64,000 bases of DNA, taken from NCBI GenBank assembly GCA_947501475.1, contig CANMWA010000009.1, positions 76,308-140,307 on the forward strand. The letters run 5' to 3'. The stretch's first letter is position 1. Every line of letters starts with the position of its first letter. A program made the translations under genes and the position numbers. Shown piece after piece: positions 1,956 through 52,273 of this stretch. The notes beneath the pieces are model-generated. The model was not told where the DNA came from. It did not search any database and saw only the letters and a list, made by a program, of their open reading frames with translations. The stretch is from an uncultured Aquimarina sp. (GTDB lineage: Bacteria > Bacteroidota > Bacteroidia > Flavobacteriales > Flavobacteriaceae).

Positions 1956-1967
1956 AAATAGTATGCT

Positions 1968-2795
1968 ATGCGAGAGTTTGATTGTGTTTCAGTAGAATAT
2001 TTTAAAGAAGAGCAACTTTTGTTCTGGAGAATTAAAGACACCGGAATGCCTAATTTTTGTCTAAAAGGCCTTCAAGAATTTAAGGAGTTCTCTTATTGGG
2101 TAAAAAATTACTTTTCACATCCTGACAGGCCTTTGAAATTTATCGTTTCAGGATCAGAACATCATGGTATATATAATATGGGAGGGGATTTGCCTTTTTT
2201 TTTGGATTGTATTACCTCTAATAATATAGAAAGATTAAGAGTATATGCTCATCTTTGTATTGATGCTATTCACAACATATATACCTCTTTTGAGTTACCT
2301 GTAATTACCATTGCGTTAGTAGAAGGGAATGCATACGGCGGTGGTTTTGAATGTGCTTTGGCCCATGATTTTATACTCGCAGATGAAACTGTTCAATTTG
2401 GACTGCCAGAAAATAAATTCAATTTATTTCCTGGGATGGGAGGATATAGTTTGTTATATCGTAAACTACATGCAGTAGATGTCGACGCTATTATTCGAAG
2501 TGGAAAAGTTTACAAAGCCAGATATCTTGAATCTTTAGGACTAATCGAACAGCTTATTACTAAAGGTTTAGGAAGAAAATCGTTACATAGTTTTATAAAA
2601 AAAATAGATGAACGGTTTAATTTTGAATATCATCATATCCAATGTAAAAAAGTTATCAATCCATTATTTAAGAAAGAATTACTAGAAATAACTGATATTT
2701 GGGTAGACGCATGTATGAAAATTAAGCCGTTTGATTTACGTAAAATGGAAATTTTGGCAAAAGCACAGGCTAGAAAAACTAAATCTATCTTATGA
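1968..2795 (+). CDS. rpfF: RpfF-like crotonase (DSF synthase type enoyl dehydratase/thioesterase)
   Basis: YNMGGDLPFF, ALVEGNAYGGGFECAL, GLPENKFNLFPGMGGYS and C-terminal ITDIWVD...LRKMEILAKAQARK match the RpfF subfamily pattern. Both catalytic Glu motifs (GGGFE, GLPE) are present. Confidence 0.8.
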   Translation: MREFDCVSVEYFKEEQLLFWRIKDTGMPNFCLKGLQEFKEFSYWVKNYFSHPDRPLKFIVSGSEHHGIYNMGGDLPFFLDCITSNNIERLRVYAHLCIDAIHNIYTSFELPVITIALVEGNAYGGGFECALAHDFILADETVQFGLPENKFNLFPGMGGYSLLYRKLHAVDVDAIIRSGKVYKARYLESLGLIEQLITKGLGRKSLHSFIKKIDERFNFEYHHIQCKKVINPLFKKELLEITDIWVDACMKIKPFDLRKMEILAKAQARKTKSIL

Positions 2796-3812
2796 TTTAT
2801 GGTCATAAGATGCATAGGTGTTTCTGAATTTTTTGGGAGTTACACCTTCAATTTTCTTAAATGCAGCAGTAAAATGTGTTGAGTTCTTATAACCTACCAA
2901 TTCAGAGATTTCATATATAGGTTTTTTGGTGTGATGTAGCAGCTGTTTTGCTTTTTTCATGCGTTGATCGGTTGCATATTCAAAGATAGTTTTACCAAAT
3001 ACTCTTTTAAATTCTTTCTTTAAAATAAAATCATTTAATCCAATTTGTCGCGATAATTGCTGTATAGAATATTGAACTGTAAGATCAGAAGAAATTAGAT
3101 GCTGGGTTTTGTATAATTTTTTGATCAGATTGTCAACTTGGTTTAGTATTTCTGGTTTGTTTACTTTTTTGGTATCTAATTGTAAGGCAATCAACTCCAG
3201 TATTTTTGATTCTAGAAATAAACGTTTTAACAACCCTTTTCTTTGATCTGATATGATTTCTGAAAGTATTTCTTGAGTTTTAGAACACAAGGGTTGAGTA
3301 AAGTTGTTTTTTAAGCTTTTTAATGAATATCGATCCAGAATATCATAGGCTTCATTAAGGCGATGCCTTTTGATAAATGCAATATCCATTCTGATTTTTA
3401 TTTCTTTTAAATGTTTACGTTTATAATATGCGATAGAACCACTAATTTTTGATGCATAGACTAGATAACTTTCTTGACTTTCATATACTAAATCATTGTT
3501 TAGACCATTGACTTTGATGATTTGCTCCCCTTCGATAAGAAAAGATAACTCAAGAAAATCTTTAGAAAAATACCCTTCAATAGTAAGATCTTTATTAAAA
3601 AGTATATCAAACACGCCTACTGATAACCCATCAAAACGATGAAGCTCAAAATATCCAGTTCCGTATTCCTCTAAACATTTAAATTTTTTTGAAGTGATCC
3701 CACACTGTTCTTGTGTAGTAATTAATTGCGAAATAGTATATAAAGTACATTTGTTTTTTTGGGTATTGGTTTCGGTTTTAAGTGACGTTTTTTTACGTCT
3801 TTTTTTATCCAT
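2790..3812 (-). CDS. AraC-family regulator, PchR/YbtA-like
   Basis: FLESKILEL segment and C-terminal HTH (LSRQIGLNDFILKKEFKRVFG...VGYKNSTHFTAAFKKIEGVTP); divergent from the TonB receptor. Confidence 0.9.
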   Translation of the reverse strand: MDKKRRKKTSLKTETNTQKNKCTLYTISQLITTQEQCGITSKKFKCLEEYGTGYFELHRFDGLSVGVFDILFNKDLTIEGYFSKDFLELSFLIEGEQIIKVNGLNNDLVYESQESYLVYASKISGSIAYYKRKHLKEIKIRMDIAFIKRHRLNEAYDILDRYSLKSLKNNFTQPLCSKTQEILSEIISDQRKGLLKRLFLESKILELIALQLDTKKVNKPEILNQVDNLIKKLYKTQHLISSDLTVQYSIQQLSRQIGLNDFILKKEFKRVFGKTIFEYATDQRMKKAKQLLHHTKKPIYEISELVGYKNSTHFTAAFKKIEGVTPKKFRNTYASYDHKS

Positions 3813-3842
3813 AAAGCGTCATTTTTCTCTTTCTATAGGTAG

Positions 3843-3882
3843 TAATTTTGCGATTATATTTATTTAGATCAAATATAAATAA
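3843..3882 (+). promoter_or_regulatory. Bacteroidota -7 promoter element (TAATTTTG, 3843-3850) followed by a palindromic Fur-box-like operator (3860-3882)
   Basis: TAnnTTTG match, then the inverted repeat TTATTTAGA-n5-TATAAATAA immediately upstream of the iron-uptake operon. Confidence 0.6.
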
Positions 3883-3922
3883 TATTATAACTTCTAACTA
3901 AATTGTTTCAAAAAAATTGTAA

Positions 3923-6307
3923 TTGTCAGTGGTAGTTTTAAGAAAAAAATGCAATGTCTTTTTTCTGTTTTTTGCTATACTATCATGTATAGCACAAAAT
4001 AGCATTGAAGGAGTTGTTCTAGACCAAAATTCGAATCCAATTTCTGAAGTATCTATTACTATAATAGAACTTAAAAATGTGGGTGTAATGAGCGATTTTG
4101 ATGGGAAGTTTGAAATTTCAGTCCCTCAAGGTTCTTATACTTTAGAAACTAGTTTTGTAGGTTTTAGAACCAAACGCGTTTTGATCAATGCAAAAACTCC
4201 TGAAAAAGTATTTGTCACGATCACCCTTCAAGAAAATATTGAAGAATTGACCGATGTAATCATTACAGGGAAAACACAAGCTCAAAATATTAGAGAAAAG
4301 GCTTTTGAAGTTGAAGTAGTAGAAACCAAAAATCTTAAGAATCTAAGCGTAGATATAAATTCGGTTTTAAATACAATACCTGGCGTGGTTGTTCGCGAAA
4401 GTGGTGGCTTAGGTTCGAGATTTAATTTTTCACTACATGGATTTTCAGAAAATCAGGTACGATTTTTTATCGATGGAATCCCCCAGGATAATTTGGGTAC
4501 TTCTTTGACATTTAACAACTTTCCTGCTACCCTTATTGAACGAGCAGAGGTTTATAAAGGGGTAGTGCCAATATACCTGGGAGCCGATGCATTAGGAGGT
4601 GCTATTAACATTGTTACCAACCAAAGTAAAAAAACATTTTTGGATGTTTCTTATGATTCAGGTTCTTTTAATACACACAGGGCTACACTAAATGGAAACT
4701 ATCACAATAAAAATGGATTTGTGGCTCGAGTAGTCTCATTTTTTAACTATTCTGATAATGATTATACGATCAATCAAGTAGACCCAAGAGAAAAAGGCAT
4801 TGTTATACGAGATGAAAATGGTAACCGTACAGGAGAAATACTTGATAGTGCAGAACGGTTTCATGATGCTTACCAATCACAAATGGTACAAGCAAGAATA
4901 GGGTTGGTAGATAAAACATATGCAGATGAGCTATTTATTGGAGCAACAATAGCTTCTAATGATAATGAAATACAGCACGGGATTCTCGCCGTAAACCCAT
5001 TTGGAGATGTAAGAACTAAAGAAAATGTAACGCTAGGTTCTCTGGTTTATAAAAAAAATAGGATTCTTAGAATGCCTATAAAATTGAAAATATATGGGGA
5101 GCTTGCAAAAATACAATCAAAACAAATTGATACCTTTTCTAATAATTATAATTGGTCTGGAGAAGTTTTAGAACGAAATGATCAAACACGAGGAGAGTTG
5201 GGAGGCGCCAAAACACTATTTACCTTTGATGATCAAAGGCATATCATTAATACCTCTATAGCGTATGTGCCAAATAATTCGAATACGCTTCATTTTAATT
5301 ACACAAAAAATCACTTAAAACGACAAGGCAGTGATCCTTTTAGTATTTTCAAATCTCCTTTTGAAGATCCACATCATATTGATAAAAACATTTTAGGCTT
5401 GTCTTATGAGGTAGAAACCTTTAAGGAAAGATGGGAAACTACAGTGTTTTCAAAGCTGTTTTTGACAACAGTAAAAGGAATAATCGAGGATGAATTTGAT
5501 TCAAACGCAGCAACTAGATTCACAGCGTATAAAAATACTTCTCAAGAATGGGGGTATGGTATTGCATCTTCCTTTGATATAAATAATGAGATAAAGGCAA
5601 AGATTTCTTATGAAAAAACATTCAGAATACCTGAAGGTACAGAGCTATTTGGAGATGGGTTATTACTTAGTTCTAACCCCTTTTTAGAACCTGAACAAAG
5701 TGCTAATGTTAATGTTGGTTTTTTATGGAAAAGTAAAGCCAGTAACCTTCAGTTAGATGTAGATATGAATTCTTTCTATAGAGGTACTAAAAACCTTTTC
5801 TTTTTGTCGCCTGAAGGTGTGAAAGCTCGCTATATAAATCTAGCCGAAACCAGAAATGTAGGTTTTGAAGGAGAAATATCGATTTCTCATAAGGAACGTT
5901 TTTATGTAATTGCTAATGCTACATATCAATATATCACTGATGCCGTTAGGGATATTCGTGTGCCTAATCAGCCTTATTTTTTCGGAAATTTTAGAACAGG
6001 TTACACATTTCAGAACTTATTCTCATTTCAAGGAAAACTTACGATATCGTGGAATTCTCTTTTTACAGAAGAGTTTCCTTTTCAGTCCTTTAATGATGGA
6101 AATACCAATGATCGATTACGCATTCCACAACAATTTTCGCACAATTTACAATTAGGGTATTCTTTAGATGACCGCTATCATATATCTCTTCAGGTTAGAA
6201 ATTTAACAGATGCTAGCGTGTTTGATAATATTGCTGTTCAAAAACAAGGGCGTGCCTTTTTTGTGAAACTAAGATATTTTTTCAGTCAAAATAAATCCAA
6301 AATTTAA
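3923..6307 (+). CDS. TonB-dependent receptor (CarboxypepD_reg-like N-terminus, plug, beta-barrel), probable siderophore uptake
   Basis: Signal peptide; plug motifs IPGVVVRESGGLGS, RFFIDGIP, IERAEVYKGVVPIYLGADALGGAINIVT; C-terminal QGRAFFVKLRY. Exact start is uncertain (TTG 3923 or GTG 3929). Confidence 0.92.
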   Translation: MSVVVLRKKCNVFFLFFAILSCIAQNSIEGVVLDQNSNPISEVSITIIELKNVGVMSDFDGKFEISVPQGSYTLETSFVGFRTKRVLINAKTPEKVFVTITLQENIEELTDVIITGKTQAQNIREKAFEVEVVETKNLKNLSVDINSVLNTIPGVVVRESGGLGSRFNFSLHGFSENQVRFFIDGIPQDNLGTSLTFNNFPATLIERAEVYKGVVPIYLGADALGGAINIVTNQSKKTFLDVSYDSGSFNTHRATLNGNYHNKNGFVARVVSFFNYSDNDYTINQVDPREKGIVIRDENGNRTGEILDSAERFHDAYQSQMVQARIGLVDKTYADELFIGATIASNDNEIQHGILAVNPFGDVRTKENVTLGSLVYKKNRILRMPIKLKIYGELAKIQSKQIDTFSNNYNWSGEVLERNDQTRGELGGAKTLFTFDDQRHIINTSIAYVPNNSNTLHFNYTKNHLKRQGSDPFSIFKSPFEDPHHIDKNILGLSYEVETFKERWETTVFSKLFLTTVKGIIEDEFDSNAATRFTAYKNTSQEWGYGIASSFDINNEIKAKISYEKTFRIPEGTELFGDGLLLSSNPFLEPEQSANVNVGFLWKSKASNLQLDVDMNSFYRGTKNLFFLSPEGVKARYINLAETRNVGFEGEISISHKERFYVIANATYQYITDAVRDIRVPNQPYFFGNFRTGYTFQNLFSFQGKLTISWNSLFTEEFPFQSFNDGNTNDRLRIPQQFSHNLQLGYSLDDRYHISLQVRNLTDASVFDNIAVQKQGRAFFVKLRYFFSQNKSKI

Positions 6308-6319
6308 AATTAAGTAAGT

Positions 6320-7648
6320 ATGAAAACTCAAAAATGGAATTTCTATAGTATAATAATGATTATAGCAGCGATGTCTGCTTTTTCTTGTAGTGATGATGAT
6401 AATGAAACCGGATCAAATCCAGACCCAACAGCGACTACTAAATATGCGGTTGGTTTTCAAACATTACCTGTAGCTCAAGCTGGACCGGTTGATTATATGT
6501 TACAATTAAACTCTTTAGAATCTTTAACTACAGGAGAATTAACTGTAGAGGGGCAAGGTATACCTCAAACTGGTTGGCGATTTTTTCATCAAGCAGGTAA
6601 TACAATTTTTACAGCAGGTTATGTTGAAGATAGAACATGTATCTCATATCAATTAGACGAAAATGGTGAACTTAAAAAGAAAACCGATTTTGTATATCAA
6701 ACCACATTAAATAACTACTTGACTGTAGACGATAAAACGCTGCTAGCTGTAGAGTTGGCTTTTGGCGTATCGGATCCAGATGCGACTTCGATCCCAGATC
6801 GTAGTTTTTATGAAATAAACGCAGAAACAGGTCAGGTGGATCGTATAATTAGCCATCCTGTCGATAGTAGTGTAGGTGACGGAACTGCTGCAAATCCGCC
6901 TTACTTACCTTGGATAACGGGTATGGTGGTAAGAGATGGTAAATTATTTTTGTCGTATCATAAATATTTTCCTGATGGAAATGGAAATGCTATCGCAGTT
7001 GATAAAGCCTATATAGCAGTTTTAAAATACCCAGAATTTGAATTAGAAAAATTGATCGAAGACGATAGAACAAGTTCTATTGGGACTAATGGGCCAAGTA
7101 CAGGTATTGAACAAACAGAAAATGGAGATATTTATTCATATTCTTCCTCTTCACTAACATCTGGTATATCTGGAGCTACTAAGCCCTCTGGTGTGTTAAG
7201 AATTAAAAATGGCGAAACTGATTTTGATACAACATACTTTTTTGACGTAGAAAACGCAGCTAACGGAGGTAAAATATATTGGATGGATTATATAGATAAT
7301 GGAAAAGCTCTTGCTCGAGTTGTTCTTGATGATACTTTAGGTCAATGGGTAGCCTTTAGAGAGCAAGGAGAACAATTAAAATTAGTAGTATTAGATCTTA
7401 TAAATAAAACTGTTACCGATGTACAAGGAATCCCTCCTCATGCTAATCGGTATAGCTCACCAACGTTTGTTGAAGATGGAAAAGCTTATATAAGTGCAAG
7501 AACAGGAGAACTTTTAAATGAAAGCAGCACCAATACAGCAGACGGAGAAACTTATGTATACATTGTAGATCCTGCAACCGCAACCGCAACCAAAGGAGCA
7601 AAGATTAATGGATATGCTCTCAAAGGTATTTTTAAAGTAAGTAAGTAA
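6320..7648 (+). CDS. DUF4374-type surface lipoprotein (XusB-like siderophore-binding propeller)
   Basis: Lipobox SAFSC followed by acidic SDDDNE export signal; motifs YSSSS, KPSGVLRIKNGETDFDTTYFFD, YIVDPATATATKG; lies between a TonB receptor and a PepSY gene. Confidence 0.75.
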   Translation: MKTQKWNFYSIIMIIAAMSAFSCSDDDNETGSNPDPTATTKYAVGFQTLPVAQAGPVDYMLQLNSLESLTTGELTVEGQGIPQTGWRFFHQAGNTIFTAGYVEDRTCISYQLDENGELKKKTDFVYQTTLNNYLTVDDKTLLAVELAFGVSDPDATSIPDRSFYEINAETGQVDRIISHPVDSSVGDGTAANPPYLPWITGMVVRDGKLFLSYHKYFPDGNGNAIAVDKAYIAVLKYPEFELEKLIEDDRTSSIGTNGPSTGIEQTENGDIYSYSSSSLTSGISGATKPSGVLRIKNGETDFDTTYFFDVENAANGGKIYWMDYIDNGKALARVVLDDTLGQWVAFREQGEQLKLVVLDLINKTVTDVQGIPPHANRYSSPTFVEDGKAYISARTGELLNESSTNTADGETYVYIVDPATATATKGAKINGYALKGIFKVSK

Positions 7649-7664
7649 TTCAACTTTTGAGAAT

Positions 7665-7698
7665 AAAACACTCCTAAAATGTTTTTTAGGAGTGTTTT
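7665..7698 (+). terminator. Intrinsic terminator / mRNA-stabilising hairpin between lipoprotein and PepSY genes
   Basis: Perfect 15-bp inverted repeat AAAACACTCCTAAAA / TTTTAGGAGTGTTTT with a 4-nt loop. Confidence 0.75.
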
Positions 7699-7720
7699 CT
7701 AATCACTAAAATCTTGATGC

Positions 7721-8902
7721 ATGTTTTCAGCAAAAAAGAAGAATACTCGCAAAACAATTCTGCAACTCCATAAAATATTGGGATTAGCTACTGGTATTGT
7801 ACTTTTTATTGTATCCATTACTGGCTGTTTATGGGTTTTTAAAGATGAAATCGAAAGTTTTTATGACGACTATACATATGTAACTCCTCAAGAAAAAGGT
7901 TTTATAGCACCTTCTTTAGTAAAAAATATAGCCGAAGGTATAATTCCTGATAAAATCATTCATGGTGTTGTATATGGTAAACCCAATGAAGCCATTGAGG
8001 TAGTTTTTTATCAATCAGAACCTGAAATATTTTATCAAAGTGTTTTTTTGAATCCGTATACAGGTGATTTCATTAAACGAATAAATAATGATTCGGGTTT
8101 TTTTGGTTTTGTACTAAAAGGACATTTGCGTTTATGGCTACCAGATGCAATAGGTTCTAGAGTTGTATCCTATTCAATTTTATTGTTTTTGATCATAATG
8201 GTTAGCGGAATTTTTTTGTGGTGGCCCAGGAATAATAAAAATTGGCGTCAGCGCTTAAAATTTGATTGGAACAGTAAAACACGCTGGAAACGTAAAAATT
8301 TTGACCTACATACAGTTACAGGATTTTACATTTCTTCATTTGGATTGATATTGGCATTTACAGGGTGTGTTATGGCATTTAATTGGTTCTATTTTATTGC
8401 ATATAAAGCTACTGGAGGCGATAAGGCACCACAATTTATAATGCCCAAAAATATAAGTAAAAATAGCGTTGACCCTGTTCAAAATCCATTGTATGATGAA
8501 TTGATTCCTTTTTTATATAAAAAGTATACAAATGCAAAAAGTTTTGAACTTCATTATCCCGAAAATGATTCAACGTCTGTGCTGGTCGAGGTAAGTAATT
8601 CTAAAGGATTGTATTATAACATGGATTACCTTTTTTTTGATCAGAATACGTTACAAGAAATAGAAACCACCAGTATTTATGGAAAATATAAGGATGCCAA
8701 ATTTGCTGATAAGGTAATTCGTATGAACTATGATATTCATATTGGTGCTATTGGCGGCATTGTTGGTAAAATCATAGCGTTTTTAATAAGCCTTATTTGT
8801 GCTTCATTACCAATAAGTGGTATTTTATTGTGGTATGGAAGAACGTATAAAAGAAAACCTAGAAATCTTAGTAAGATAAAACCTTCTTATGATACTCTTT
8901 AG
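7721..8902 (+). CDS. PepSY-associated TM helix domain protein (iron reductase/uptake, XusC-like)
   Basis: LHKILGLATG...SITG, LKGHLRLWL, SGIFLWWP, FDLHTVTGFY and DIHIGAIGG His motifs. Confidence 0.9.
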   Translation: MFSAKKKNTRKTILQLHKILGLATGIVLFIVSITGCLWVFKDEIESFYDDYTYVTPQEKGFIAPSLVKNIAEGIIPDKIIHGVVYGKPNEAIEVVFYQSEPEIFYQSVFLNPYTGDFIKRINNDSGFFGFVLKGHLRLWLPDAIGSRVVSYSILLFLIIMVSGIFLWWPRNNKNWRQRLKFDWNSKTRWKRKNFDLHTVTGFYISSFGLILAFTGCVMAFNWFYFIAYKATGGDKAPQFIMPKNISKNSVDPVQNPLYDELIPFLYKKYTNAKSFELHYPENDSTSVLVEVSNSKGLYYNMDYLFFDQNTLQEIETTSIYGKYKDAKFADKVIRMNYDIHIGAIGGIVGKIIAFLISLICASLPISGILLWYGRTYKRKPRNLSKIKPSYDTL

Positions 8903-9539: not shown

Positions 9540-9555
9540 TCTACGTATTCCGGAA
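9540..9555 (-). promoter_or_regulatory. Candidate operator TTCCGGAATACGTAGA upstream of the divergent AraC gene
   Basis: 14/16 identical to the motif at 11610-11625 on the + strand. Confidence 0.45.
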
Positions 9556-9888
9556 AAACTACTATCAATTCAGTGAATGCGTTCGTATATTTATCTACAT
9601 TAAATTATTGATAATGAAGTTATTATGTTTTTTTCGGATAAAAAATGTATCTAAAATAGAAATGAGTATATTTATGACTTAGCAAGTATATATTTTGGTA
9701 CATTTTATCATTAATATTTTAATCTTTTAGCAAAAAACTTTAAGATATTGCATAGTAAACAATACTTTTTTTGAAAAGACGTTTGAATTATTTTAGGGAT
9801 TGGAAGGCAAAAATTAGATATATAACCTATTAAAAAATAAATGGTTATGCCTTTAAATATCTTGTAAATACAAGGAAATTAAGTAAGA

Positions 9889-11550
9889 ATGAACTATAAA
9901 AAAATACTTTATAAAAGTATACTTTTACTACTGTACACAATATCTGCAATTGCTTATCAAGATACTACCATATCTCAAGAGAGTGAAGGAGATCTAAAAC
10001 AGATAGATTCGATTTTTACCCTACATAAAAAAGACCTTGACATTGCCAAAAGAGATCAAGATACTGCAAAAATGGCTCAAGGCTTTTATTATTTATCTAT
10101 TATTACTGATAGTAATATTTCTCAAAAATATAGTGATAGTGTTATAGCATTAACTCAAAACCGTAGTTTTCAGAATTATCCCATGCTAGCCTATCAAAAT
10201 AAAGCTACTATTTATTATAATGAAGGTAATTTTAAACAAGCTTTTGATTATTATCTTAAAACAAATGAAGAAGCCCAGAAATATAATAACGAGTTATACT
10301 TTCACCAGAGTATTAGGGATATGGCAATATTAAAAGCACACGTTGGTGAGCATGAAACAGGATTAGAACCTTTAAAAAAGTGTTATGAATACTTCTCTAA
10401 AATAAAAGAAACAAATTCGCTTGATTATTTGATAACACTTTTTGCATTATCAGACTCATATAATAAACATAAAATGTTGGATTCTGCTACACTTATTAAT
10501 ATGCTAGGAATAGAAGAATCAATACGCTTGGATAATAAGGATTTTGGTGATGGGTTCTATTTTACCTTTAACGAAGGGATTAATCAATACTATAAAGAGA
10601 ACTATCAAGCTGCAAAAGATAGTTTGGATAAATCATTAGATACATTGACCGCGATAGGAGATCTGGCAAATGAAGGAATGGCCTATTATTATTTGGGAAA
10701 AACCTTATCTGCATTGAATGATCAACAAGGGGCTATTAATGCACATAAGAAAGTCGATGAAATATTTCAGAAAACCCCAAGAGTAATTCCTGAGAGTCGA
10801 CAAAGCTATGAAATTCTAATTAGTCATTATAAAAAAATAGGTGATCGTGATAATCAATTAAAATATATCGAACGATTGATTACTATCGATAGTGTTATCA
10901 ATAGTAATTATAAATATTTAATTAAAAATGTAGTACAAAAGTATGATACCCCTAGACTTCTTTCCGAAAAACAAGAAATTATTGATTCGTTAGAAGATGA
11001 TAAAAAGTCATCAACGATGATGAATATTATATTGGTTGTTGTAAGCATATTGTTTTTAAGTTTTTGGATATTTAATTACTTTAAAAGAAGAAATTATAAG
11101 AAAAAATTTCATGAATTGTATTATTCTTCTGCGCAAACCAAAGTTGGTAGACAAGGTTCATTAAATCAAGAAAACCAAGAGCCAATAGGAGTATCTGAAG
11201 AGATTATCGAAGATATATTGCATAAGCTTGATGAATTTGAGAAAAATTTAAACTTTTTACAGCCCGATATCACTACAAGTACACTTTCTAAGACTTTTAA
11301 TACCAATTCTAAATATTTATCTAAAGTGGTAAATAGATACAAAAAGAAAAATTTTAGTGTATATATAAATGATTTAAGAATCGATTACTCTGTAGCAAAA
11401 CTTAAAGAAGATCAAAAGTTTAAACACTATACGATGAAAGCTATTGCTCAGGAAATTGGCTTTAATACAACCCAGGCGTTTTCTAAATCTTTTTATAAAA
11501 AGAATGGAATTCACCCTTCTTATTTCATTAAACAGCTACAAAGACAATAA
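9889..11550 (+). CDS. Transmembrane one-component regulator: signal peptide, TPR repeats, TM helix, AraC HTH
   Basis: N-terminal signal; TPR-like helices (AYQNKATIYYNEGNFKQAFDYYLK, AYYYLGKTLSALNDQQGAINAHKK); TM IILVVVSILFLSFWIF; HTH (LSKTFNTNSKYLSKVVN...INDLRIDY...IAQEIGFNTTQAFSKSFYKKNGIHPS). Confidence 0.9.
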   Translation: MNYKKILYKSILLLLYTISAIAYQDTTISQESEGDLKQIDSIFTLHKKDLDIAKRDQDTAKMAQGFYYLSIITDSNISQKYSDSVIALTQNRSFQNYPMLAYQNKATIYYNEGNFKQAFDYYLKTNEEAQKYNNELYFHQSIRDMAILKAHVGEHETGLEPLKKCYEYFSKIKETNSLDYLITLFALSDSYNKHKMLDSATLINMLGIEESIRLDNKDFGDGFYFTFNEGINQYYKENYQAAKDSLDKSLDTLTAIGDLANEGMAYYYLGKTLSALNDQQGAINAHKKVDEIFQKTPRVIPESRQSYEILISHYKKIGDRDNQLKYIERLITIDSVINSNYKYLIKNVVQKYDTPRLLSEKQEIIDSLEDDKKSSTMMNIILVVVSILFLSFWIFNYFKRRNYKKKFHELYYSSAQTKVGRQGSLNQENQEPIGVSEEIIEDILHKLDEFEKNLNFLQPDITTSTLSKTFNTNSKYLSKVVNRYKKKNFSVYINDLRIDYSVAKLKEDQKFKHYTMKAIAQEIGFNTTQAFSKSFYKKNGIHPSYFIKQLQRQ

Positions 11551-11609
11551 TAATAACCGAAAACTATTTCGTTATAATTTATTGATTTTCAGTTATTTAA
11601 AAAGTGTCA

Positions 11610-11625
11610 TTCCGGAAAACGTACA
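11610..11625 (+). promoter_or_regulatory. Candidate operator TTCCGGAAAACGTACA upstream of the peptide genes
   Basis: Near-identical copy at 9540-9555 (reverse strand); partial TTCCG repeats at about 11641 and 11671. Confidence 0.45.
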
Positions 11626-11704
11626 GGTGGTAGATTAATATTTCCGTTTTTTTATAGAATTATTCATAATTTCCGGTTTGAAAAAACGTAATTACTCAAA
11701 CTCA

Positions 11705-11902
11705 ATGAAAAAAGCAACAAACAAAAAATTAAGCTTAGACAAACTAAATATTACAAAGTTGTCTAAACAAAATACCATTAAAGGGGGGATTGTTTACAAT
11801 ACTTACCAGTTTACCTGTCAAACAGATTTAACGGTAAGACCTCGTGCTACAAATACAACTACAGGTTGCTCAAGTGGTCAATGTGAGGCAGCATTGAATT
11901 AG
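11705..11902 (+). CDS. Small double-glycine-leader Cys/Thr-rich peptide precursor 1 (class I lanthipeptide-like leader KKLSLDK)
   Basis: MKKATNKKLSLDKLNITKLSKQNTIKGG, then core IVYNTYQFTCQTDLTVRPRATNTTTGCSSGQCEAALN. ATG at 11705 aligns with the paralogue start. Confidence 0.75.
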   Translation: MKKATNKKLSLDKLNITKLSKQNTIKGGIVYNTYQFTCQTDLTVRPRATNTTTGCSSGQCEAALN

Positions 11903-11992
11903 AATAGCTCTTTTGTGTATACATTTTATAATTTTTACAAAAAATGTATTACTAAAAACTCAATTTTTATTGTCAAATAATTACTCAAACTC

Positions 11993-12199
11993 ATGAAAAA
12001 AGCAAGAAACAAAAAATTAAGCCTAGACAAATTAAATATTACAAAATTAACTAAACTAAATTTTGTAGTAGGAGGATATGTTGAAAGTCAAGTAATAGGT
12101 GTAAATGGCTGTGAGCCAGATTTAACAGTAAGACCACGTAATACAGGTACGACTGCAGAATGCCCAACTAATGGACAATGTGAAAACGAATTTGCCTGA
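11993..12199 (+). CDS. Small double-glycine-leader peptide precursor 2
   Basis: MKKARNKKLSLDKLNITKLTKLNFVVGG, then core YVESQVIGVNGCEPDLTVRPRNTGTTAECPTNGQCENEFA. The 5' UTR (AATTACTCAAACTC) and leader DNA are duplicated from precursor 1. Confidence 0.75.
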   Translation: MKKARNKKLSLDKLNITKLTKLNFVVGGYVESQVIGVNGCEPDLTVRPRNTGTTAECPTNGQCENEFA

Positions 12200-12243
12200 T
12201 TTTTTTTGTAATCAGTAGATCCTAATACGTATAACGTTTAGAG

Positions 12244-12279
12244 AAAAAAATGTGCACTCAGTCAGGTGCACATTTTTTT
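12244..12279 (+). terminator. Intrinsic terminator after the peptide pair
   Basis: 14-bp inverted repeat AAAAAAATGTGCAC / GTGCACATTTTTTT with an 8-nt loop and a U tract. Confidence 0.8.
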
Positions 12280-12480: not shown

Positions 12481-14706
12481 ATGATAAGGTTTTTGATAAT
12501 TTTAATTAGTATTGGCTCAGTTTCATTAAGCTGGGGGCAAATAAATACCAATGAAAAAAAATCTTTTGTAGTTGGTAATACTTCAGAAAAAATTGAGATT
12601 GATGGTGATCTAAGTGAAGCTGTGTGGAGCAAATTAACTCCTGCCAAGGATTTTGTACAGTACTTCCCTTCAGACTCCCTTCCTGCAAAAGCACAGACAG
12701 AAATTTATATGTGTACCGATAAGAAAAACCTATATATCGGTATAAAATGTTATGCGATTGGTAATGATTGGATCGTAAATTCGTTACGCAGAGATTATAG
12801 AGCCGGAGGATCAGATAACATTACCTTTTTGTTTGATACATTTGATGATGGTACCAATGCATTGTATTTTGGAATTAACCCAGAAGGCGTACTTCGTGAA
12901 GGAATCATAAGCAACGGAGGTAATGTATTAAGGGATTTTTCGACCTCCTGGGATAATAAATGGATAGGTGAAGCAAAGAAATATGATGGATATTATACTG
13001 CTGAGCTTGAGATCCCCTTCAGTACATTAAGATACCCCACACCTTCCAAAAAATGGGGGTTTTCTACATACCGTTTCGATTCTCAATCTAATGAAATAAG
13101 TACCTACTCTAGAGTACCTCGTAACCAGATTGTTTTTACGTTGGCATATCCCGCTGATATGATTTGGGAAGAAGAATTAACTACCAAAAGTAGTGCAGTT
13201 TCTTTAATTCCATTTGTGTCGTCTGGTTTTAATAAAAATTTCGAAGATGATACACCTTCAGATGATTTTTTTGAAGCAGGAGGTGATGTAAAAATTGCAC
13301 TAACACCAGGACTTAATTTGGATCTAACGGTTAACCCTGATTTTTCGCAAGTAGAAGTAGACGAGCAGATCACAAATTTGGATCGGTTTGAGATTTTTTT
13401 CCCAGAACGCAGACAATTTTTTCTGGAAAATGCCGATTTGTTTGGTCAGTTTGGTTTTGCCAATATCAATCCGTTTTTTTCTAGACGTATAGGGGTTGCT
13501 GAAGATGTAAATACCGAAGATTTAGTGCAAAATAGAATTTACGGTGGTTTGCGCATTAGCGGAAAAATTGATACCGATACACGAATTGGTCTTTTAAATA
13601 TGCAAACGGCTGCTAGTGATAATCAAGGTATATCAAGTACTAATTATGGAGTGGCTGTGGTACAACGAAAATTATGGACGCGTTCAAATATTGGTATAAT
13701 AGCCGTAAATAAGGAGATTTTTGATTATGAAGAATCCGACACCCTAGATATCAATAGATACAATAGGATGGCTGGTGTAGATTTTAATTATGCAACAAAA
13801 GATAATACCTGGTCTGGAAAAACATTTGTACATGGCACTTTTACACCAGAACAAGATGTGTCAATTGCTCAAGGAAGTACATTAAATTATAATACCAGAA
13901 AATTTGGTGTATTATGGAAACATGAATATGTAGATGAAGATTATAATGCCGAGGTTGGTTTTGTACCCCGTGCTAATTATTATAGAATTAACCCAGTTAC
14001 AGAACTTAGATATTATCCTCAAAACGAGTTTTTAAACAATCATACTTATAGCGCAGAAGGCGATATTTTTTGGCGCCCAGGTTTTGGTAAGACAGATCAT
14101 TTCTTTTCTGCAGGATGGGGAGGAGAGTTTGCAGAAAGGGCTTCTTTTGGCGTAAATCTAAATCATAATTATGTCTACCTATTTGATCCGTTTGATCCAA
14201 CAGGAACAGATTCTCTTGAGCTGGATGCTGATCAGGATTTTTCATATTTCAGTTTTACAGGAAGCTATAGAAGTGATAGGCGGAAAGTATTTAGTTGGAA
14301 TTTTAACCCATATATAGGCGAATATTTTAATGGTTGGCGATATGGGACAAGAGGAAATTTTACTATTCGTTACCAACCCAGAGGTTCATTTTCTCTTAAT
14401 TATGCGGTAAACTTTTTTGATTTACCACATCTTGATGGTGGCAGAGAGACGTTCTTAATTAGTCCGCGAATAGATTATACGTTTTCAAAGAGTTTATTTA
14501 CCTCGCTATTTGTGCAATATAATTCTCAAGATGATAATACCAACATCAATGCACGGATCCAGTGGCGTTTTGCTCCGGTATCAGATCTAATACTTGTGTA
14601 TACCGATAATTTCCTGACCGGAGAAGTAGATCCTTTAGATCGTTTTGCGTTTAATGTACGTACCCGATCTGTTGTGCTTAAAGTTACCTATTGGCTTAAT
14701 TTATGA
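12481..14706 (+). CDS. CBM9-like domain plus DUF5916 outer-membrane beta-barrel protein
   Basis: IEIDGDLSEAVW, GYYTAELEIPFSTLRY, LNLDLTVNPDFSQVEVD and FFPERRQFFLE motifs; signal peptide. Confidence 0.85.
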   Translation: MIRFLIILISIGSVSLSWGQINTNEKKSFVVGNTSEKIEIDGDLSEAVWSKLTPAKDFVQYFPSDSLPAKAQTEIYMCTDKKNLYIGIKCYAIGNDWIVNSLRRDYRAGGSDNITFLFDTFDDGTNALYFGINPEGVLREGIISNGGNVLRDFSTSWDNKWIGEAKKYDGYYTAELEIPFSTLRYPTPSKKWGFSTYRFDSQSNEISTYSRVPRNQIVFTLAYPADMIWEEELTTKSSAVSLIPFVSSGFNKNFEDDTPSDDFFEAGGDVKIALTPGLNLDLTVNPDFSQVEVDEQITNLDRFEIFFPERRQFFLENADLFGQFGFANINPFFSRRIGVAEDVNTEDLVQNRIYGGLRISGKIDTDTRIGLLNMQTAASDNQGISSTNYGVAVVQRKLWTRSNIGIIAVNKEIFDYEESDTLDINRYNRMAGVDFNYATKDNTWSGKTFVHGTFTPEQDVSIAQGSTLNYNTRKFGVLWKHEYVDEDYNAEVGFVPRANYYRINPVTELRYYPQNEFLNNHTYSAEGDIFWRPGFGKTDHFFSAGWGGEFAERASFGVNLNHNYVYLFDPFDPTGTDSLELDADQDFSYFSFTGSYRSDRRKVFSWNFNPYIGEYFNGWRYGTRGNFTIRYQPRGSFSLNYAVNFFDLPHLDGGRETFLISPRIDYTFSKSLFTSLFVQYNSQDDNTNINARIQWRFAPVSDLILVYTDNFLTGEVDPLDRFAFNVRTRSVVLKVTYWLNL

Positions 14707-14811: not shown

Positions 14812-15561
14812 TTATCGATGTAATCGATCCAAAATTTCCATGACCTCATTCTTTTTTCTTACCGACACGGGAATGTTTTCTCCGTTTTTTAGCATAAGAT
14901 ACCCTCCGTCGGTTTTAATAAAAGCACTAATACATTGCAAATTAACTAAGTGACTTTGATGTACTCTTAAAAATTGATAGTTCTTAAGCATATCAGCAAA
15001 GTATTTTAAAGTTTTGGTTACAAAAATCTTTTGCTCATCTTGTAGATAAAAAATAGTATTATTACTGTCGGATTCGCAACGTATAATGTCATCTAGATTC
15101 ACAATAATAATTTTATCGAGTGTATGTAATGATATTTTATCGGGTTTTTGCTCTGGAGCCGACAGTGTGTCTTTTAAAATATTTAAACGCTCTCTATTGG
15201 GTTGAATTTGCTCTTTAGCTTTGGCTATGGCTTGCGCTAGTTCTTCATTTGAGTATGGTTTTAGTACATAATCGATAGCAGCAAATTTGAATGCCCTGAT
15301 AGCATATTCATCGCTAGCTGTTACAAAAATGATTTTGGATTTTAATTCAGGAAATATTTCTAAAACATCAAAACCAGTACCATCGCCTAACATAATATCC
15401 AAAAATAGGATATCGGGCTCTGTATTTCTTAATGATTTTGCCGCTTCAACAACACTTTGGGCTGTATCAATAATTTTTATTTCGGGATGATTCGTTTCTA
15501 GATCACTCTTCAAAAGTTGGAGTGCATCTGTCATGTCTTCTACAATAATAGCTGTTAGCAT
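14812..15561 (-). CDS. LytR/AlgR (LytTR) response regulator
   Basis: Receiver motifs IVED, LFLDIML, FVTA and K; LytTR motifs IIRCESDSNNT and FLRVHQSHLVN. Confidence 0.93.
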   Translation of the reverse strand: MLTAIIVEDMTDALQLLKSDLETNHPEIKIIDTAQSVVEAAKSLRNTEPDILFLDIMLGDGTGFDVLEIFPELKSKIIFVTASDEYAIRAFKFAAIDYVLKPYSNEELAQAIAKAKEQIQPNRERLNILKDTLSAPEQKPDKISLHTLDKIIIVNLDDIIRCESDSNNTIFYLQDEQKIFVTKTLKYFADMLKNYQFLRVHQSHLVNLQCISAFIKTDGGYLMLKNGENIPVSVRKKNEVMEILDRLHR

Positions 15562-15568
15562 AATAATA

Positions 15569-18500
15569 TTAATAATCGGTTTGTAATGGGATTTTGAAGG
15601 CTATTTGTGTTCCTGCAACAGTTTTGCCATTAGTAATGATTTCTTTTATATCTAAAGAGTTTTTGCCAGAAATAGATTCTAGCCTTTCTCTGGTTACTGT
15701 TAATGCCATAGATTGATGATCTGTATTGGTTTTTGCTTTCTGTGATTGAAAAATTCCTTGCCCATTATCTTCTACAGTGCAATGTAAGAATTCTTCGGTA
15801 GTATGAAACCGTACTTTTAATTCACCATCTCTACTACCTTTTAAAATACCATGTCGTACTGCATTTTCTACAAATGGTTGAATAAGCATAGGAGGGATTA
15901 ATATTTCTTCGGGATCAAAATCAGAATCTATATGAATATCATAAGTAAAAGACTTATTGGCCATTAATTGTTCTATTTCTACATAATGCTTCAGGGTTTG
16001 TATTTCTTGATCAAGAGTAATATAATCTTTTCTAGAGTTATATAAAGTTTCTCTTAATAAGGTAGCAAAGGTATTGATCGTTGTATTCATTCTTTGCGGG
16101 TTGTTGGTCCCCATAGCTTTAATTCCATTAAGTGCATTAAAGATAAAGTGTGGATTCATTTGTAGACGTAAAGCTTTTTGTTCTAGAGAGAGTAGGTGAT
16201 TTTGCATCTCTAATCGTTTGCGTTCTTCTTTGTTTTTTTGTTTTACTTTACGGATATAGGATAAAGCATATCCACCTAAAATTAATAGTATGGCAGCGAG
16301 AACCGCCAGTTGGAACCAGGTTTTTTCGTATATAGGACTATCAATAAAAAACTGAAATGTAATAGGATCACTCTCTTCCCATCTGTAGTTTCTGGATTGT
16401 GCAGAAAAGGCGTGTGCCCCATAGGCAAGCCCTGCCAGGTTTTGTTTATTATCTGATGACCATGGACTCCATTCAGAATTATTTAACCGTATACGATACT
16501 GTATATCATTGGGGTGATCTAGATCTATCGTTTTATAACTAAATGATAATTCGGTTTGGGTTGGTTTTAGTTTTAAGACATTATTACTATTGGTCCATGT
16601 ATTTAAATTTATAGAGTCTACAGTTTGGTAGGCTACTTCGATATTTTCAAAAAATAACTTGGGTTTTATTGTGGTCTTTGTAGTCTCACTGGGTTCGTAT
16701 TTTGTTAATCCATATATGGCTCCAAACCATAGGTTTCCATTTTCATCTTTGGCAACCGAATTTTGGCAGGTTTCTATTCCTAGGAAGCCATCATTTCTGC
16801 CAAAATGAAATATATCAACAATATCATTAGACTGATTGAGTTCTATTTTATCTACTCCACGTTCACTACCAACCCATAAATTATTTTGATCATCAAAGAT
16901 CATTTGATAGATATTATCCGAATAGGGTTTTTTTCTTCCTTTTAATTTTTTGACAGCAATATTTTCTCCTTTTAATTCAGACCACCATATCCCTCTACCA
17001 GCTGTACCTATATATAATTTACCTTTATGAAAAACTAAGGTGATGATAGCTGTTTTTTGATTTAAAACATTTCCAAAATGGGTAACCTTATTATTTTTGA
17101 TATATCCTAAATGACCATTTTGAGTAGCATACCATACTTTTCCTAAAGAATCTTGCTTCATATAACTAATCTGTAGATCCTTGATGCCATTTCTACGTTC
17201 AAACTTTTTTACATTGGTAATACTATTTTTTTCTGTATCAAATTTAAATCTTACAATACCTGTTGAATATGATGCTGCCCAAATTGTATTATTATTAACA
17301 TGTATTGTTCTAATCCAATCAGATGGTAAGCCTTTATCACGATCTATAATATAATTTTTGAATACTGTTTTTGTAATGGTATCAATCTTTATGATCGAAT
17401 CTGTTTTTGGTTCTTTGGTTTGAACAATGCTGTCAATTTGTTTGATTTCTTTAAAAAGAATCCCTTTACCATCGGTACCTGCCCATATGTTTCCCGAGGC
17501 ATCACTGGTTATGGTTTTGATTTTTACCTCAGATAAACGATCTGTTTGTGGGATGTGGTGTATTTTACCAATTGAATCAACTTTGATAAGACCAGCTTCA
17601 GAATTAGATGCCCAGATATCTTTTTTTGTATTATGAATTGCATATACACGATTACCTTTTAAACCACTATTTTGATCATAATGAATAAAGTTATTCTGAA
17701 AATATTTATAAAACCCACCACCAGAAGTTGCAATCCATATATTTGATTGTTGATCTAAAAGGCTTTTTCTGATATGTGAAACCGTCAAGCCGTTTTTACG
17801 ATTGATTTTCTTTTTTAGTTTACGTTTTTTGGCGTCTATTATAGTAATCCCTTCATTATCGGTTGCAAACCATAATTCATTTTCATTATGTGCAGAGATA
17901 TTATTTACGCGTAGGGGTTTAGCAATCCAACGATTTCCATAAGATTTTGCATTGGTGTTAATTACTAAGACACCTTGGTTAAAGGCTGCTGCAAAAACTT
18001 TGTTTTTATGATAAATAGCAGCTGTAAAATTATGAGCACTATGCCTTTCTATAATACTGGCATCATTACGAATTGCATTAAGTTTCCATAACCCTTTGCT
18101 TGTTGCTACCCAAAATAACCTACCATCAAAAACAATATTACTAATGATACTTGTATTTATGGAAGTGTTTAGCTGTATCTTTTTTAAACCTAATTCTTTT
18201 TGGTATTGATAGATTCCGATATTTGTGGCGAGGTAGGTTTTATTTTTTATACGACATATTTTATTAATTCTAGGGCCTTCAAGATTAGTAAATTTATCTT
18301 TTGTTTTTATAGATAGTCCCCCTTTGGTCCCTATAAAAAGGCTGTCATTTGCAAAAGTAAGCGTGTGGATGTAATTAGATTGCAATCCATCAGTTTCATT
18401 CCAGGTTTTAAATTCTTCACCATTAAATCTAGACAGCCCACCTCCTTGGGTTCCTAACCATAGATATCCTATTTCATCTTGTATAATATCATAAACCTGT

Positions 18501-18622
18501 GATTGCGGTAAGCCGTCTTCTAATGTATATGCTCTTAATTGATTATTCTGAGCAGATAAAGAGCTTAAGGTACTTAATGCCACAAAAGAAAATAAATAAC
18601 ATAAAAATCTATACAGGTTCAT
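15569..18622 (-). CDS. LytS-type sensor histidine kinase with two-component regulator propeller and Y_Y_Y domains
   Basis: GLPQSQVYDIIQDEIGYLWLGTQGGGL repeats, Y_Y_Y region, TM helix, LRLQMNPHFIFNALN, IQPFVENAVRHG, DNGQG. Confidence 0.92.
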   Translation of the reverse strand: MNLYRFLCYLFSFVALSTLSSLSAQNNQLRAYTLEDGLPQSQVYDIIQDEIGYLWLGTQGGGLSRFNGEEFKTWNETDGLQSNYIHTLTFANDSLFIGTKGGLSIKTKDKFTNLEGPRINKICRIKNKTYLATNIGIYQYQKELGLKKIQLNTSINTSIISNIVFDGRLFWVATSKGLWKLNAIRNDASIIERHSAHNFTAAIYHKNKVFAAAFNQGVLVINTNAKSYGNRWIAKPLRVNNISAHNENELWFATDNEGITIIDAKKRKLKKKINRKNGLTVSHIRKSLLDQQSNIWIATSGGGFYKYFQNNFIHYDQNSGLKGNRVYAIHNTKKDIWASNSEAGLIKVDSIGKIHHIPQTDRLSEVKIKTITSDASGNIWAGTDGKGILFKEIKQIDSIVQTKEPKTDSIIKIDTITKTVFKNYIIDRDKGLPSDWIRTIHVNNNTIWAASYSTGIVRFKFDTEKNSITNVKKFERRNGIKDLQISYMKQDSLGKVWYATQNGHLGYIKNNKVTHFGNVLNQKTAIITLVFHKGKLYIGTAGRGIWWSELKGENIAVKKLKGRKKPYSDNIYQMIFDDQNNLWVGSERGVDKIELNQSNDIVDIFHFGRNDGFLGIETCQNSVAKDENGNLWFGAIYGLTKYEPSETTKTTIKPKLFFENIEVAYQTVDSINLNTWTNSNNVLKLKPTQTELSFSYKTIDLDHPNDIQYRIRLNNSEWSPWSSDNKQNLAGLAYGAHAFSAQSRNYRWEESDPITFQFFIDSPIYEKTWFQLAVLAAILLILGGYALSYIRKVKQKNKEERKRLEMQNHLLSLEQKALRLQMNPHFIFNALNGIKAMGTNNPQRMNTTINTFATLLRETLYNSRKDYITLDQEIQTLKHYVEIEQLMANKSFTYDIHIDSDFDPEEILIPPMLIQPFVENAVRHGILKGSRDGELKVRFHTTEEFLHCTVEDNGQGIFQSQKAKTNTDHQSMALTVTRERLESISGKNSLDIKEIITNGKTVAGTQIAFKIPLQTDY

Positions 18623-52199: not shown

Positions 52200-52273
52200 T
52201 TATAGCAGTATAAAAGATCACGAAATCCTGATCTTTTATGTTTAAATTTATATACTATATTAAAAGAGAAATT

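Follow-up and report, generated by a model that had tools for sequence, protein, structure and literature searches.

A recurrent regulator–precursor peptide cassette with candidate palindromic operators in an uncultured Aquimarina

Described peptide-sensing systems and the Aquimarina locus

Peptide-based cell–cell signalling is well established in Firmicutes; for Bacteroidota, no description of it was found in the searchable literature. The RRNPP receptors of Firmicutes (PlcR–PapR, NprR–NprX, ComR–ComS, Rgg–SHP) are cytoplasmic proteins that bind re-imported peptide and carry an N-terminal XRE-type helix-turn-helix (HTH) or a phosphatase domain, their peptides being exported by Sec/PptAB and re-imported by Opp. 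The locus described here lies in a stretch of 64,000 nucleotides (the window) of contig CANMWA010000009.1, from an uncultured Aquimarina sp., and comprises the gene of a one-component regulator with a tetratricopeptide repeat (TPR) domain, one transmembrane (TM) helix and an AraC-type HTH, directly followed by two genes for small peptides with Gly-Gly leaders and by a hairpin terminator. As in the RRNPP systems, a TPR-type sensor and a DNA-binding domain are joined in one protein, a small peptide gene stands immediately beside the regulator, copies of a palindromic candidate operator precede the regulator as well as the peptide promoter regions, and there are paralogous cassettes of diverged specificity. 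Unlike these systems, the locus has a Bacteroidota host, its TPR domain is predicted to be periplasmic (signal-like N-terminus, one TM helix, positive cluster after it), its HTH is AraC-type and C-terminal instead of XRE-type and N-terminal, its peptides have a leader of the type used by C39-peptidase ABC transporters (PCAT) instead of Sec/PptAB export and Opp re-import, and no sequence homology is detectable, the structural similarity being generic. Because of the predicted periplasmic sensor, the C-terminal AraC-type HTH and the Gly-Gly leader, the cassette is not considered an RRNPP member. Taken as a whole, the reading preferred here, namely that the locus is an orphan copy of a regulator–precursor cassette widespread in Flavobacteriia and that it works by the mechanism proposed below, is held with moderate confidence.

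Other described systems share single traits with this locus. Class I lanthipeptide precursors (LanA) of Bacteroidetes have been reported to carry an LxLxKx5L…GG leader motif, often together with a C39 protease (Walker et al., 2020; PMC7268733). The cassette has the same leader motif and GG cleavage site as these pinensin-type clusters, and its relatives lie directly upstream of genes for split LanB, LanC, S8 peptidases and PCAT; the window copy differs in lacking LanB, LanC and PCAT among the open reading frames (ORFs) of more than 100 aa scanned over the 64 kb, and the TPR–TM–AraC regulator and the operator appear neither in PMC7268733 nor in its supplements. Another parallel is found in autoinduced bacteriocin and lantibiotic loci (nisin NisRK, PlnABCD, ComCDE), since here too an exported product could act on a membrane receptor and induce its own genes, although those loci use a histidine kinase and a response regulator, whereas sensor and output are here one polypeptide with no phosphorelay. 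The single-pass, membrane-tethered transcription factors ToxR, CadC and TcpP also have a periplasmic sensor, but in ToxR-type proteins a cytoplasmic winged helix is N-terminal and the sensor C-terminal, in contrast to the N-terminal sensor and C-terminal AraC HTH of this regulator. In the hybrid two-component systems of Bacteroides, too, a membrane sensor ends C-terminally in an AraC-type output, but their kinase and receiver domains are absent here. Unexplained TPR genes are mentioned in the literature on Bacteroidetes loci for peptides that are made on ribosomes and modified after translation (RiPPs), and a literature search, in which coverage of subscription journals was thin, returned no description of a TPR–TM–AraC regulator linked to GG-leader peptides or of the operator. 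The leader type is thus known, while the regulator–precursor cassette and its operator may be undescribed.

Conservation of the regulator–peptide pair and its paired palindromes

The regulator belongs to the AraC/XylS family by its C-terminal DNA-binding domain, recognized both as a Pfam HTH_18 match (residues 466-548; 37.1 bits against a gathering cut-off of 33.6) and as a helical bundle in the AlphaFold2 (AF2) model, and it also matches Pfam TPR_12 (47.2 bits; cut-off 30.1). This model, built on a 21-sequence family alignment (mean predicted local distance difference test score, pLDDT, of 83), starts with a hydrophobic helix (residues 3-23), continues with 16 antiparallel TPR-type helices that form a superhelix (33-341) and with a single very long helix (354-412), and ends in the helical DNA-binding domain (437-552). 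The juxtamembrane helix is conserved in the family alignment. Residues 377-395 (MMNIILVVVSILFLSFWIF) are the sole strongly hydrophobic segment beyond the N-terminus by 19-mer hydropathy, and they are followed by NYFKRRNYKKKF, in agreement with the positive-inside rule. A periplasmic location is predicted for the TPR domain from the necessity of a cytoplasmic HTH, and the protein is accordingly predicted to be a single-pass membrane transcription factor with a TPR sensor outside and an AraC HTH inside. The layout put forward in an earlier note on this DNA (an exported TPR domain, one TM helix and a cytoplasmic AraC HTH, then two GG-peptide genes and a terminator) is thereby borne out by Pfam, AF2, hydropathy and RNA folding. 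Homologues of the regulator number 227, mainly from Aquimarina and other Flavobacteriia.

The closest of these homologues (64-66% identity) is at locus L001, in another Aquimarina genome, where three peptide genes come after it, sharing the leader and having a CxDLTTRPR…C…C core, and then the same LytTR two-component system as in the window. Paralogous Aquimarina regulators at L002-L004 (56-59% identity) have peptides with the same leader kind and unrelated cores. Scanning the genome collection with the single regulator sequence gave 3 loci; an alignment of 8 regulator sequences worked for locus finding, one of 21 sequences being too diverse, and a metagenome scan with the regulator alignment yielded 80 more loci at 24-52% identity. 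Matches of a leader hidden Markov model (HMM) among the 4249 small ORFs of all loci are confined almost entirely to the stretch directly downstream of the regulator, on its strand. Such a peptide is present downstream in 15 of the 80 eligible regulator loci, or in 16 once the frameshifted regulator of L052 is corrected, a count that refers to distant homologues (24-64% identity). In the positive loci the ORFs lie mostly 40-160 nt downstream (within 200 nt of the stop codon in 12 loci), and, compared with the remainder of the flanks, the 1.2 kb downstream of regulator homologues show an enrichment of leader-HMM ORFs of about 25-fold; three further loci have other Gly-Gly-type small ORFs at the same place.

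The linkage is also evident from the peptide side. With a profile built from 31 peptides, 64 small proteins were retrieved, and in all ten independent look-ups that started from a peptide (Dokdonia, Aquimarina, four Flavobacterium sources and three metagenome assemblies) a TPR/HTH_18 regulator was found immediately upstream on the same strand, with a length of 557-597 aa, except in one case where only a 90-aa HTH remnant was present. The earlier note had proposed enrichment of the adjacency as a check, and both the look-ups and the downstream enrichment speak for it. Chance adjacency of regulator and peptides is ruled out by that enrichment and by the operator statistics given below. The peptides as a family are thus bound to the regulators, whose own family is the broader one: on a neighbour-joining tree the peptide-linked members are spread over several clades, and two large clades have no peptides. 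Among the latter kind of regulators, a distant clade of 24-28% identity without LanA-type peptide (L056, L058, L061, L062, L064, L066-L070, L074, L075, L077-L080, L082) is followed, in varied combinations, by a conserved 32-aa membrane peptide (MKTKT.RIQLIKFAIG…), a membrane protein of about 135 aa (NCxCE…GIQFSK) and an S9-family peptidase.

Besides adjacency, a candidate operator links the two genes. The first copy in the window lies 59 nt past the regulator stop and 84-96 nt before the first peptide ATG; the second lies 68 nt upstream of the ATG of a divergent gene for a small AraC protein and 333 nt upstream of the regulator ATG, an arrangement that is identical in L001 (5719-5731; 67 nt before the small AraC ATG). 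The position and motif of the first copy recur in L001-L004, L007, L008, L010, L052 and L085-L092, with TTC-N2-GAA as the palindrome core common to the loci and with variants that read GTTTTTCCGGAAAACG in L001, ATTCTAGAAAACG in L002, L003 and L086, TTTCCTGAAAACA in L004, L007, L010 and L085, and CGGAATTCAGGAATTCCG or CGAAATTCCTGAATTCCG (GGAATTC-N2-GAATTCC type) in the Flavobacterium-type loci; in L085 the copy upstream reads CTGTTTTCAGGAAAACAG, which is perfectly palindromic. The centres differ between loci (CG, TA, CT). The core is found in 18 of 26 loci in the 150 nt that precede the first peptide ATG, as against 9.6% of background 150-nt windows (binomial P = 3e-13), and in 17 of these 18 it is placed at -77 to -95 from the ATG. 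At least 13 of the 18 loci have, in the intergenic stretch before the regulator gene, a second copy of their own variant (at most 2 mismatches over 13-16 nt), which is found 116-234 nt before the regulator ATG in L002, L003, L086, L008, L088, L089, L090, L092, L013 and L020, and 67-89 nt before a divergent gene in the window, L001 and L004, this gene being the small AraC (window, L001) or another Gly-Gly peptide (L004). Elsewhere in the loci, matches of that quality are rare (roughly 0.06 per kb).

Since the two sites co-vary within a locus and differ between loci, the factor that reads them should be encoded in the locus, and the adjacent regulator is the obvious candidate for binding the paired palindromes. 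Moreover, the second site precedes the regulator itself in many loci, which implies positive autoregulation there, so that the paired operators point to a locus-specific autoregulatory circuit. A terminator of the regulator gene, an alternative role for the palindrome, is ruled out by its 2-nt centre, the lack of a T-tract and the matching copies upstream of other genes. In L010 (2287-3187) and L085 (818-1718) an operator copy faces a gene for a NusG/UpxY-like antiterminator followed by a large non-ribosomal peptide synthetase (NRPS), and the regulon of some cassettes may thus include non-ribosomal peptide synthesis. The window also has two more partial operator-like repeats downstream of the main operator (11640-11689), ATTTCCGTTTTTTT and TTCCGGTTTGAAAAAACG, the second of which overlaps the place expected for the -7 box.

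Precursor class, maturation genes and the sensor domain

The two window peptides are 60% identical to each other, have near-identical leaders (MKKAxNKKLSLDKLNITKL…GG) and share the core motif C..DLTVRPR.T.TT..C…GQCE, each core containing 3 Cys and many Ser/Thr. The second gene duplicates both the leader and the 5' untranslated segment AATTACTCAAACTC of the first. When the 28 leader codons of the two genes are compared, 16 are identical, 6 differ synonymously and 6 non-synonymously, and the synonymous differences indicate that the genes are under coding selection; they are also considered real genes because orthologous peptides are present in another Aquimarina genome. A word-indexed protein search with the window peptides matched only the peptides themselves, and the wider relatives were retrieved by exhaustive HMMER search and the 31-sequence profile. 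The hairpin after the second gene has a minimum free energy of -27.2 kcal/mol (z = -3.9 for a 101-nt segment), and it is preceded by an A-tract and followed by a T-tract, for which reason it could terminate transcription in both directions. This hairpin was not listed by a simple scan for sigma-70 promoter and terminator patterns, in which promoter-like sites were fewer than the mean of shuffled sequences. A further hairpin, located between the peptide genes, is not significant (fold z = -0.03).

Both window peptides have the residues of the LanA leader motif (L9, L11, K13 and L19 of KKLSLDKLNITKL…GG), and a related Aquimarina peptide is named 'class I lanthipeptide' by NCBI. A generic regular expression for Gly-Gly leaders missed this leader type and returned mostly noise, and the leader HMM was used in its place. 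The peptides are not signals of a new kind; their leader is the one known from Bacteroidetes class I lanthipeptides (LxLxKx5L…GG; PMC7268733). None of the scanned window ORFs encodes LanB, LanC, a radical-SAM maturase or a Peptidase_C39 transporter, so that the LanB and LanC that accompany LanA in the same cluster are missing here. Homologous cassettes are differently placed, with LanB/LanC-type genes beside them in L013, L048, L087, L089, L090, L092 and L093. For example, an S15 peptidase and LanB follow the cassette in L013 and L087, LanC and LanB in L048, and S8 peptidases with a split LanB, with or without PCAT, in L089, L090, L092 and L093. In other relatives the cassette is followed by three S8 peptidases (L008, L088) or by a prolyl oligopeptidase (L009, L010, L085), with PCAT in addition in L009, and PCAT and a membrane-fusion protein are found near it in L086 and L090. 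Orphan cassettes are those of the window and L001-L004. Regulator and precursor are the invariant unit, and the maturation genes vary. The statement of the earlier note that no modification enzyme or transporter is adjacent holds for the window but not for the cassette in general; because the relatives' cassettes head maturation clusters, it describes a property of the orphan copy.

From the LanA leader and the maturase clusters of relatives it follows that the window peptides are LanA-type precursors and not necessarily unmodified pheromones, and their cores are compatible with lanthionine formation in trans. This bears on an alternative explanation in which the locus is a dedicated quorum-sensing module, whose unmodified or minimally processed pheromones would serve signalling only and would be sensed by the periplasmic TPR domain, the paralogues acting as private channels. 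Such a module would fit a window without maturase, the many paralogous cassettes with distinct cores and operators in Aquimarina genomes, a TPR fold that is compatible with peptide binding, and the order of regulator, peptide and paired operators, which matches the logic of PlcR–PapR and ComR–ComS. The quick divergence of the module relative to its flanks, as in pherotype loci, also agrees with it, but is equally typical of bacteriocin loci; moreover, the Ser/Thr- and Cys-rich cores resemble lanthipeptide cores, and homologous cassettes with this LanA-type leader head LanB/LanC/peptidase clusters, all of which makes the signalling-only module rather improbable.

Several relatives present further variation around the precursor. 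Another type of Gly-Gly peptide, with short Pro/Lys-rich cores (IRPPLKKDKIKIPRSGN and DIIIDKDKIKPPRPGND), is encoded in L009 (2482-2607) and L047 (860-994), that of L009 being followed by the prolyl oligopeptidase and PCAT, and these peptides may form a RiPP-like family of their own, subject to this kind of regulator. In L094 (1305-2984) a VKOR–thioredoxin fusion is divergent from the cassette, beside a 5-Cys core, and the same peptide occurs in its relative L035. Divergent HTTM (gamma-carboxylase-like) and DUF5819 proteins are encoded in L088 (802-2296; compare L008). The enzymes divergent from the L094 and L088 cassettes could act on the peptide.

Comparison of the window with L001 gives identities of 66% for the regulator, 59% for the small AraC protein and about 40% for the peptides, as opposed to 96% for the LytTR response regulator, and the module thus evolves faster than its flanks, its divergence far exceeding that of the neighbouring LytTR regulator. 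Rapid divergence is seen in both pherotype and bacteriocin loci. The same figures bear on the possibility that the LytTR two-component system is the true peptide receptor, in a Gram-negative version of ComCDE or PlnABCD, with the AraC protein as a production regulator only. It is true that the response regulator and its kinase are convergent to the peptides in the window (one gene between), in L001 (adjacent) and in L091, and that GG-leader pheromones signal through LytTR systems in Firmicutes; but a cognate receptor would be expected to diverge together with its peptides, most other cassettes have no such two-component system, and an unrelated DUF5916 gene stands between it and the peptides of the window. 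Being a conserved backbone that is absent from most cassettes, the LytTR system is a very improbable receptor. In L001 the peptides directly abut the LytTR response regulator with no DUF5916 gene between, so that the two genomes seem to differ here by an insertion or a deletion.

Within the regulator, the window and L001 proteins are 59% identical in the TPR domain and 82% in the HTH domain. A Foldseek comparison of the model with the PDB gave as best matches the 8-repeat TPR domains of LGN/Pins (E = 2.6e-7), while NprR (5dbk; E = 1.5e-4) and RapH/RapJ (about 2e-4) were all weaker than eukaryotic LGN, and domain profile scans gave no family-level sequence match of the TPR domain to RRNPP receptors. 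LGN/Pins TPR proteins bind extended peptides in their inner groove. The predicted fold is thus compatible with peptide binding without being specific evidence for it, and it is plausible that the periplasmic TPR domain senses the peptide. Tandem regulators in L003 (2112-5536) have TPR domains that are 92% identical, with only 23-57% identity in TM, linker and HTH, and the single regulator of L002 (3824-5518) is chimeric (TPR 98% identical to L003 copy 1, HTH 98% to copy 2), a pattern suggestive of unequal crossing-over or of domains swapped between the sensor and output parts.

The sensor might instead respond to another envelope or environment cue (a competitor cue, envelope stress or a partner protein), the peptides being pure outputs, as bacteriocins or other RiPPs, with no feedback. 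About 60 of 80 family members have no downstream GG peptide and are found beside unrelated genes, such as those of S9 peptidases, small membrane proteins or DsbH-like thioredoxin proteins, which means that the TPR sensor has no intrinsic tie to a single peptide; in addition, TPR domains commonly bind proteins, and many cluster-situated RiPP regulators answer other cues. Against this possibility are the unbroken linkage from the peptide side, the invariance of the regulator and precursor pair while maturation genes vary, the operator in the regulator's own promoter region in many loci (positive autoregulation is typical of autoinduction circuits) and the faster divergence of the TPR domain relative to the HTH, in step with the hypervariable cores. 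An unrelated cue with no feedback is therefore judged unlikely, if somewhat less so than a signalling-only module.

Proposed circuit, surroundings and significance

On the observed architecture, conserved adjacency, paired operators and leader kind a mechanism may be built, in which we infer the binding of regulator to operator, the activation, the export route and the identity of the ligand. The regulator, probably as a dimer, would bind its locus-specific palindrome (GTTTTCC-GGAAAAC type, core TTC-N2-GAA) about 90 nt upstream of the first peptide gene and in the divergent promoter region upstream of its own gene, and would thereby activate the genes of the peptides and of the divergent small AraC protein as well as, in many loci, its own gene. 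The peptides would undergo cleavage at Gly-Gly and export through a PCAT, and possibly also dehydration and cyclization by LanB/LanC, all of these proteins having to be encoded outside the window. The likeliest input of the TPR domain would be the exported mature peptide or a processed form of it, which would close a positive feedback loop with the logic of PlcR–PapR or nisin–NisRK, made from different parts. The transcriptional link between regulator and peptides is considered likely; autoinduction by the peptide through the TPR domain, suggested in the earlier note, is a tentative proposal that we judge somewhat less likely than not.

Several observations weigh against this reading. About three quarters of the regulator homologues have no such downstream peptide and stand in other gene contexts, from which it follows that the TPR sensor need not be a peptide receptor, and the structural similarity of that domain is generic, LGN outscoring the RRNPP proteins. 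A palindrome is atypical for AraC/XylS proteins, whose sites are usually asymmetric or direct repeats, and it could therefore belong to another factor. In the window itself, the second operator copy is placed for the divergent small AraC gene and not clearly for the regulator, the peptide promoter has no clean Bacteroidetes -7 box (TAnnTTTG) of the kind seen in most relatives, the leaders score 15.9 and 13.2 bits with NCBIfam NF038153 (lant_leader_L1a), below its cut-off of 22, and the scanned ORFs include neither exporter nor maturase.

The features of the window are collected in Table 1. The gene of the small soluble AraC protein is divergent from that of the regulator, has an operator copy in its promoter and is kept beside the regulator in L001, where genes further out differ; it probably belongs to the regulator's regulon. 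Upstream of the cassette is a siderophore-type uptake cluster (47-8902), which also encodes an IucA/IucC-FhuF protein and an acyltransferase, and downstream is a large cluster for an extracellular contractile injection system (eCIS; 19984-54449).

Table 1. Features of the cassette and of its surroundings in the 64-kb window (positions in nucleotides of the window unless given as aa)
Feature	Position	Strand	Basis or remark
Membrane-anchored one-component regulator, 553 aa	9889-11550	+	Pfam domains, AF2 model, hydropathy, family alignment
Regulator, signal or anchor helix	aa 1-23 = 9889-9957	+	
Regulator, 8-TPR superhelix (predicted periplasmic)	aa 33-341 = 9985-10911	+	
Regulator, TM helix	about aa 377-397 = 11017-11079	+	hydropathy and positive-inside residues
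Regulator, cytoplasmic AraC-type HTH	aa 437-552 = 11197-11544	+	
Operator copy 1 (candidate), ATTCCGGAAAACG	11609-11621	+	palindromic core TTCCGGAA at 11610-11617; recurs at same position in relatives
Operator copy 2 (candidate), TTTCCGGAATACG	9544-9556	-	
Precursor peptide gene 1, 65 aa	11705-11902	+	leader MKKATNKKLSLDKLNITKLSKQNTIKGG; core IVYNTYQFTCQTDLTVRPRATNTTTGCSSGQCEAALN; leader HMM E = 2.9e-14 (search over the 4249 small ORFs from all loci)
Precursor peptide gene 2, 68 aa, paralogue of gene 1	11993-12199	+	leader HMM E = 2.6e-13 (same basis)
Hairpin terminator, 15-bp stem AAAAAAATGTGCAC…GTGCACATTTTTTT	12244-12279	unassigned	RNA fold
Small soluble AraC-type transcription factor, 202 aa	8868-9476	-	Pfam HTH_18 2.3e-24
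AraC regulator of siderophore-type cluster	2790-3812	-	
TonB-dependent receptor of siderophore-type cluster	3923-6307		
DUF4374 gene of siderophore-type cluster	6320-7648		
PepSY_TM gene of siderophore-type cluster	7721-8902		
DUF5916/CBM9 gene	12481-14706		between peptide terminator and LytTR response regulator
LytTR response regulator and sensor kinase	14812-18622	-	
eCIS sheath gene	21591-23492		
eCIS Phage_base_V/VgrG-like gene	25335-27080		
eCIS Baseplate_J gene	27840-31064		
eCIS_core protein, 1598 aa	33856-38652		
CIS tape measure gene	46440-47990		
PKD protein gene of eCIS cluster	48042-52199		
Muramidase gene of eCIS cluster	52238-53116		
AAA ATPase gene of eCIS cluster	53094-54449		

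The cassette is a concrete candidate for peptide signalling in Bacteroidota, with sensor and transcription factor in one membrane protein and the gene of the probable ligand adjacent to it. Its recurrence across Flavobacteriia together with matched control sites makes a peptide-controlled feedback loop testable in this phylum, the predicted operator being one that can be mutated or swapped between paralogues. In addition, the cassette marks, and probably switches on, many cryptic clusters of Flavobacteriia, of lanthipeptide type, associated with peptidases or even of NRPS type, for which reason expression or activation of the regulator would be a practical route to silent natural-product loci, and the paired, locus-specific operators may supply orthogonal regulator/operator pairs for synthetic biology in Bacteroidota. 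Finally, a broader but doubtful possibility is that Flavobacteriia have a one-protein, periplasm-sensing form of autoinduction, in which the exported LanA-type product would bind the TPR domain, the factor would activate itself and the peptide promoter, and the many paralogous cassettes of a genome, each having a core peptide, TPR domain and operator of its own, would act as orthogonal private channels. If so, operons for RiPPs, NRPS or exporters could be turned on through such channels, and the cassette would amount to a Gram-negative counterpart of RRNPP or ComCDE signalling assembled from unrelated parts.

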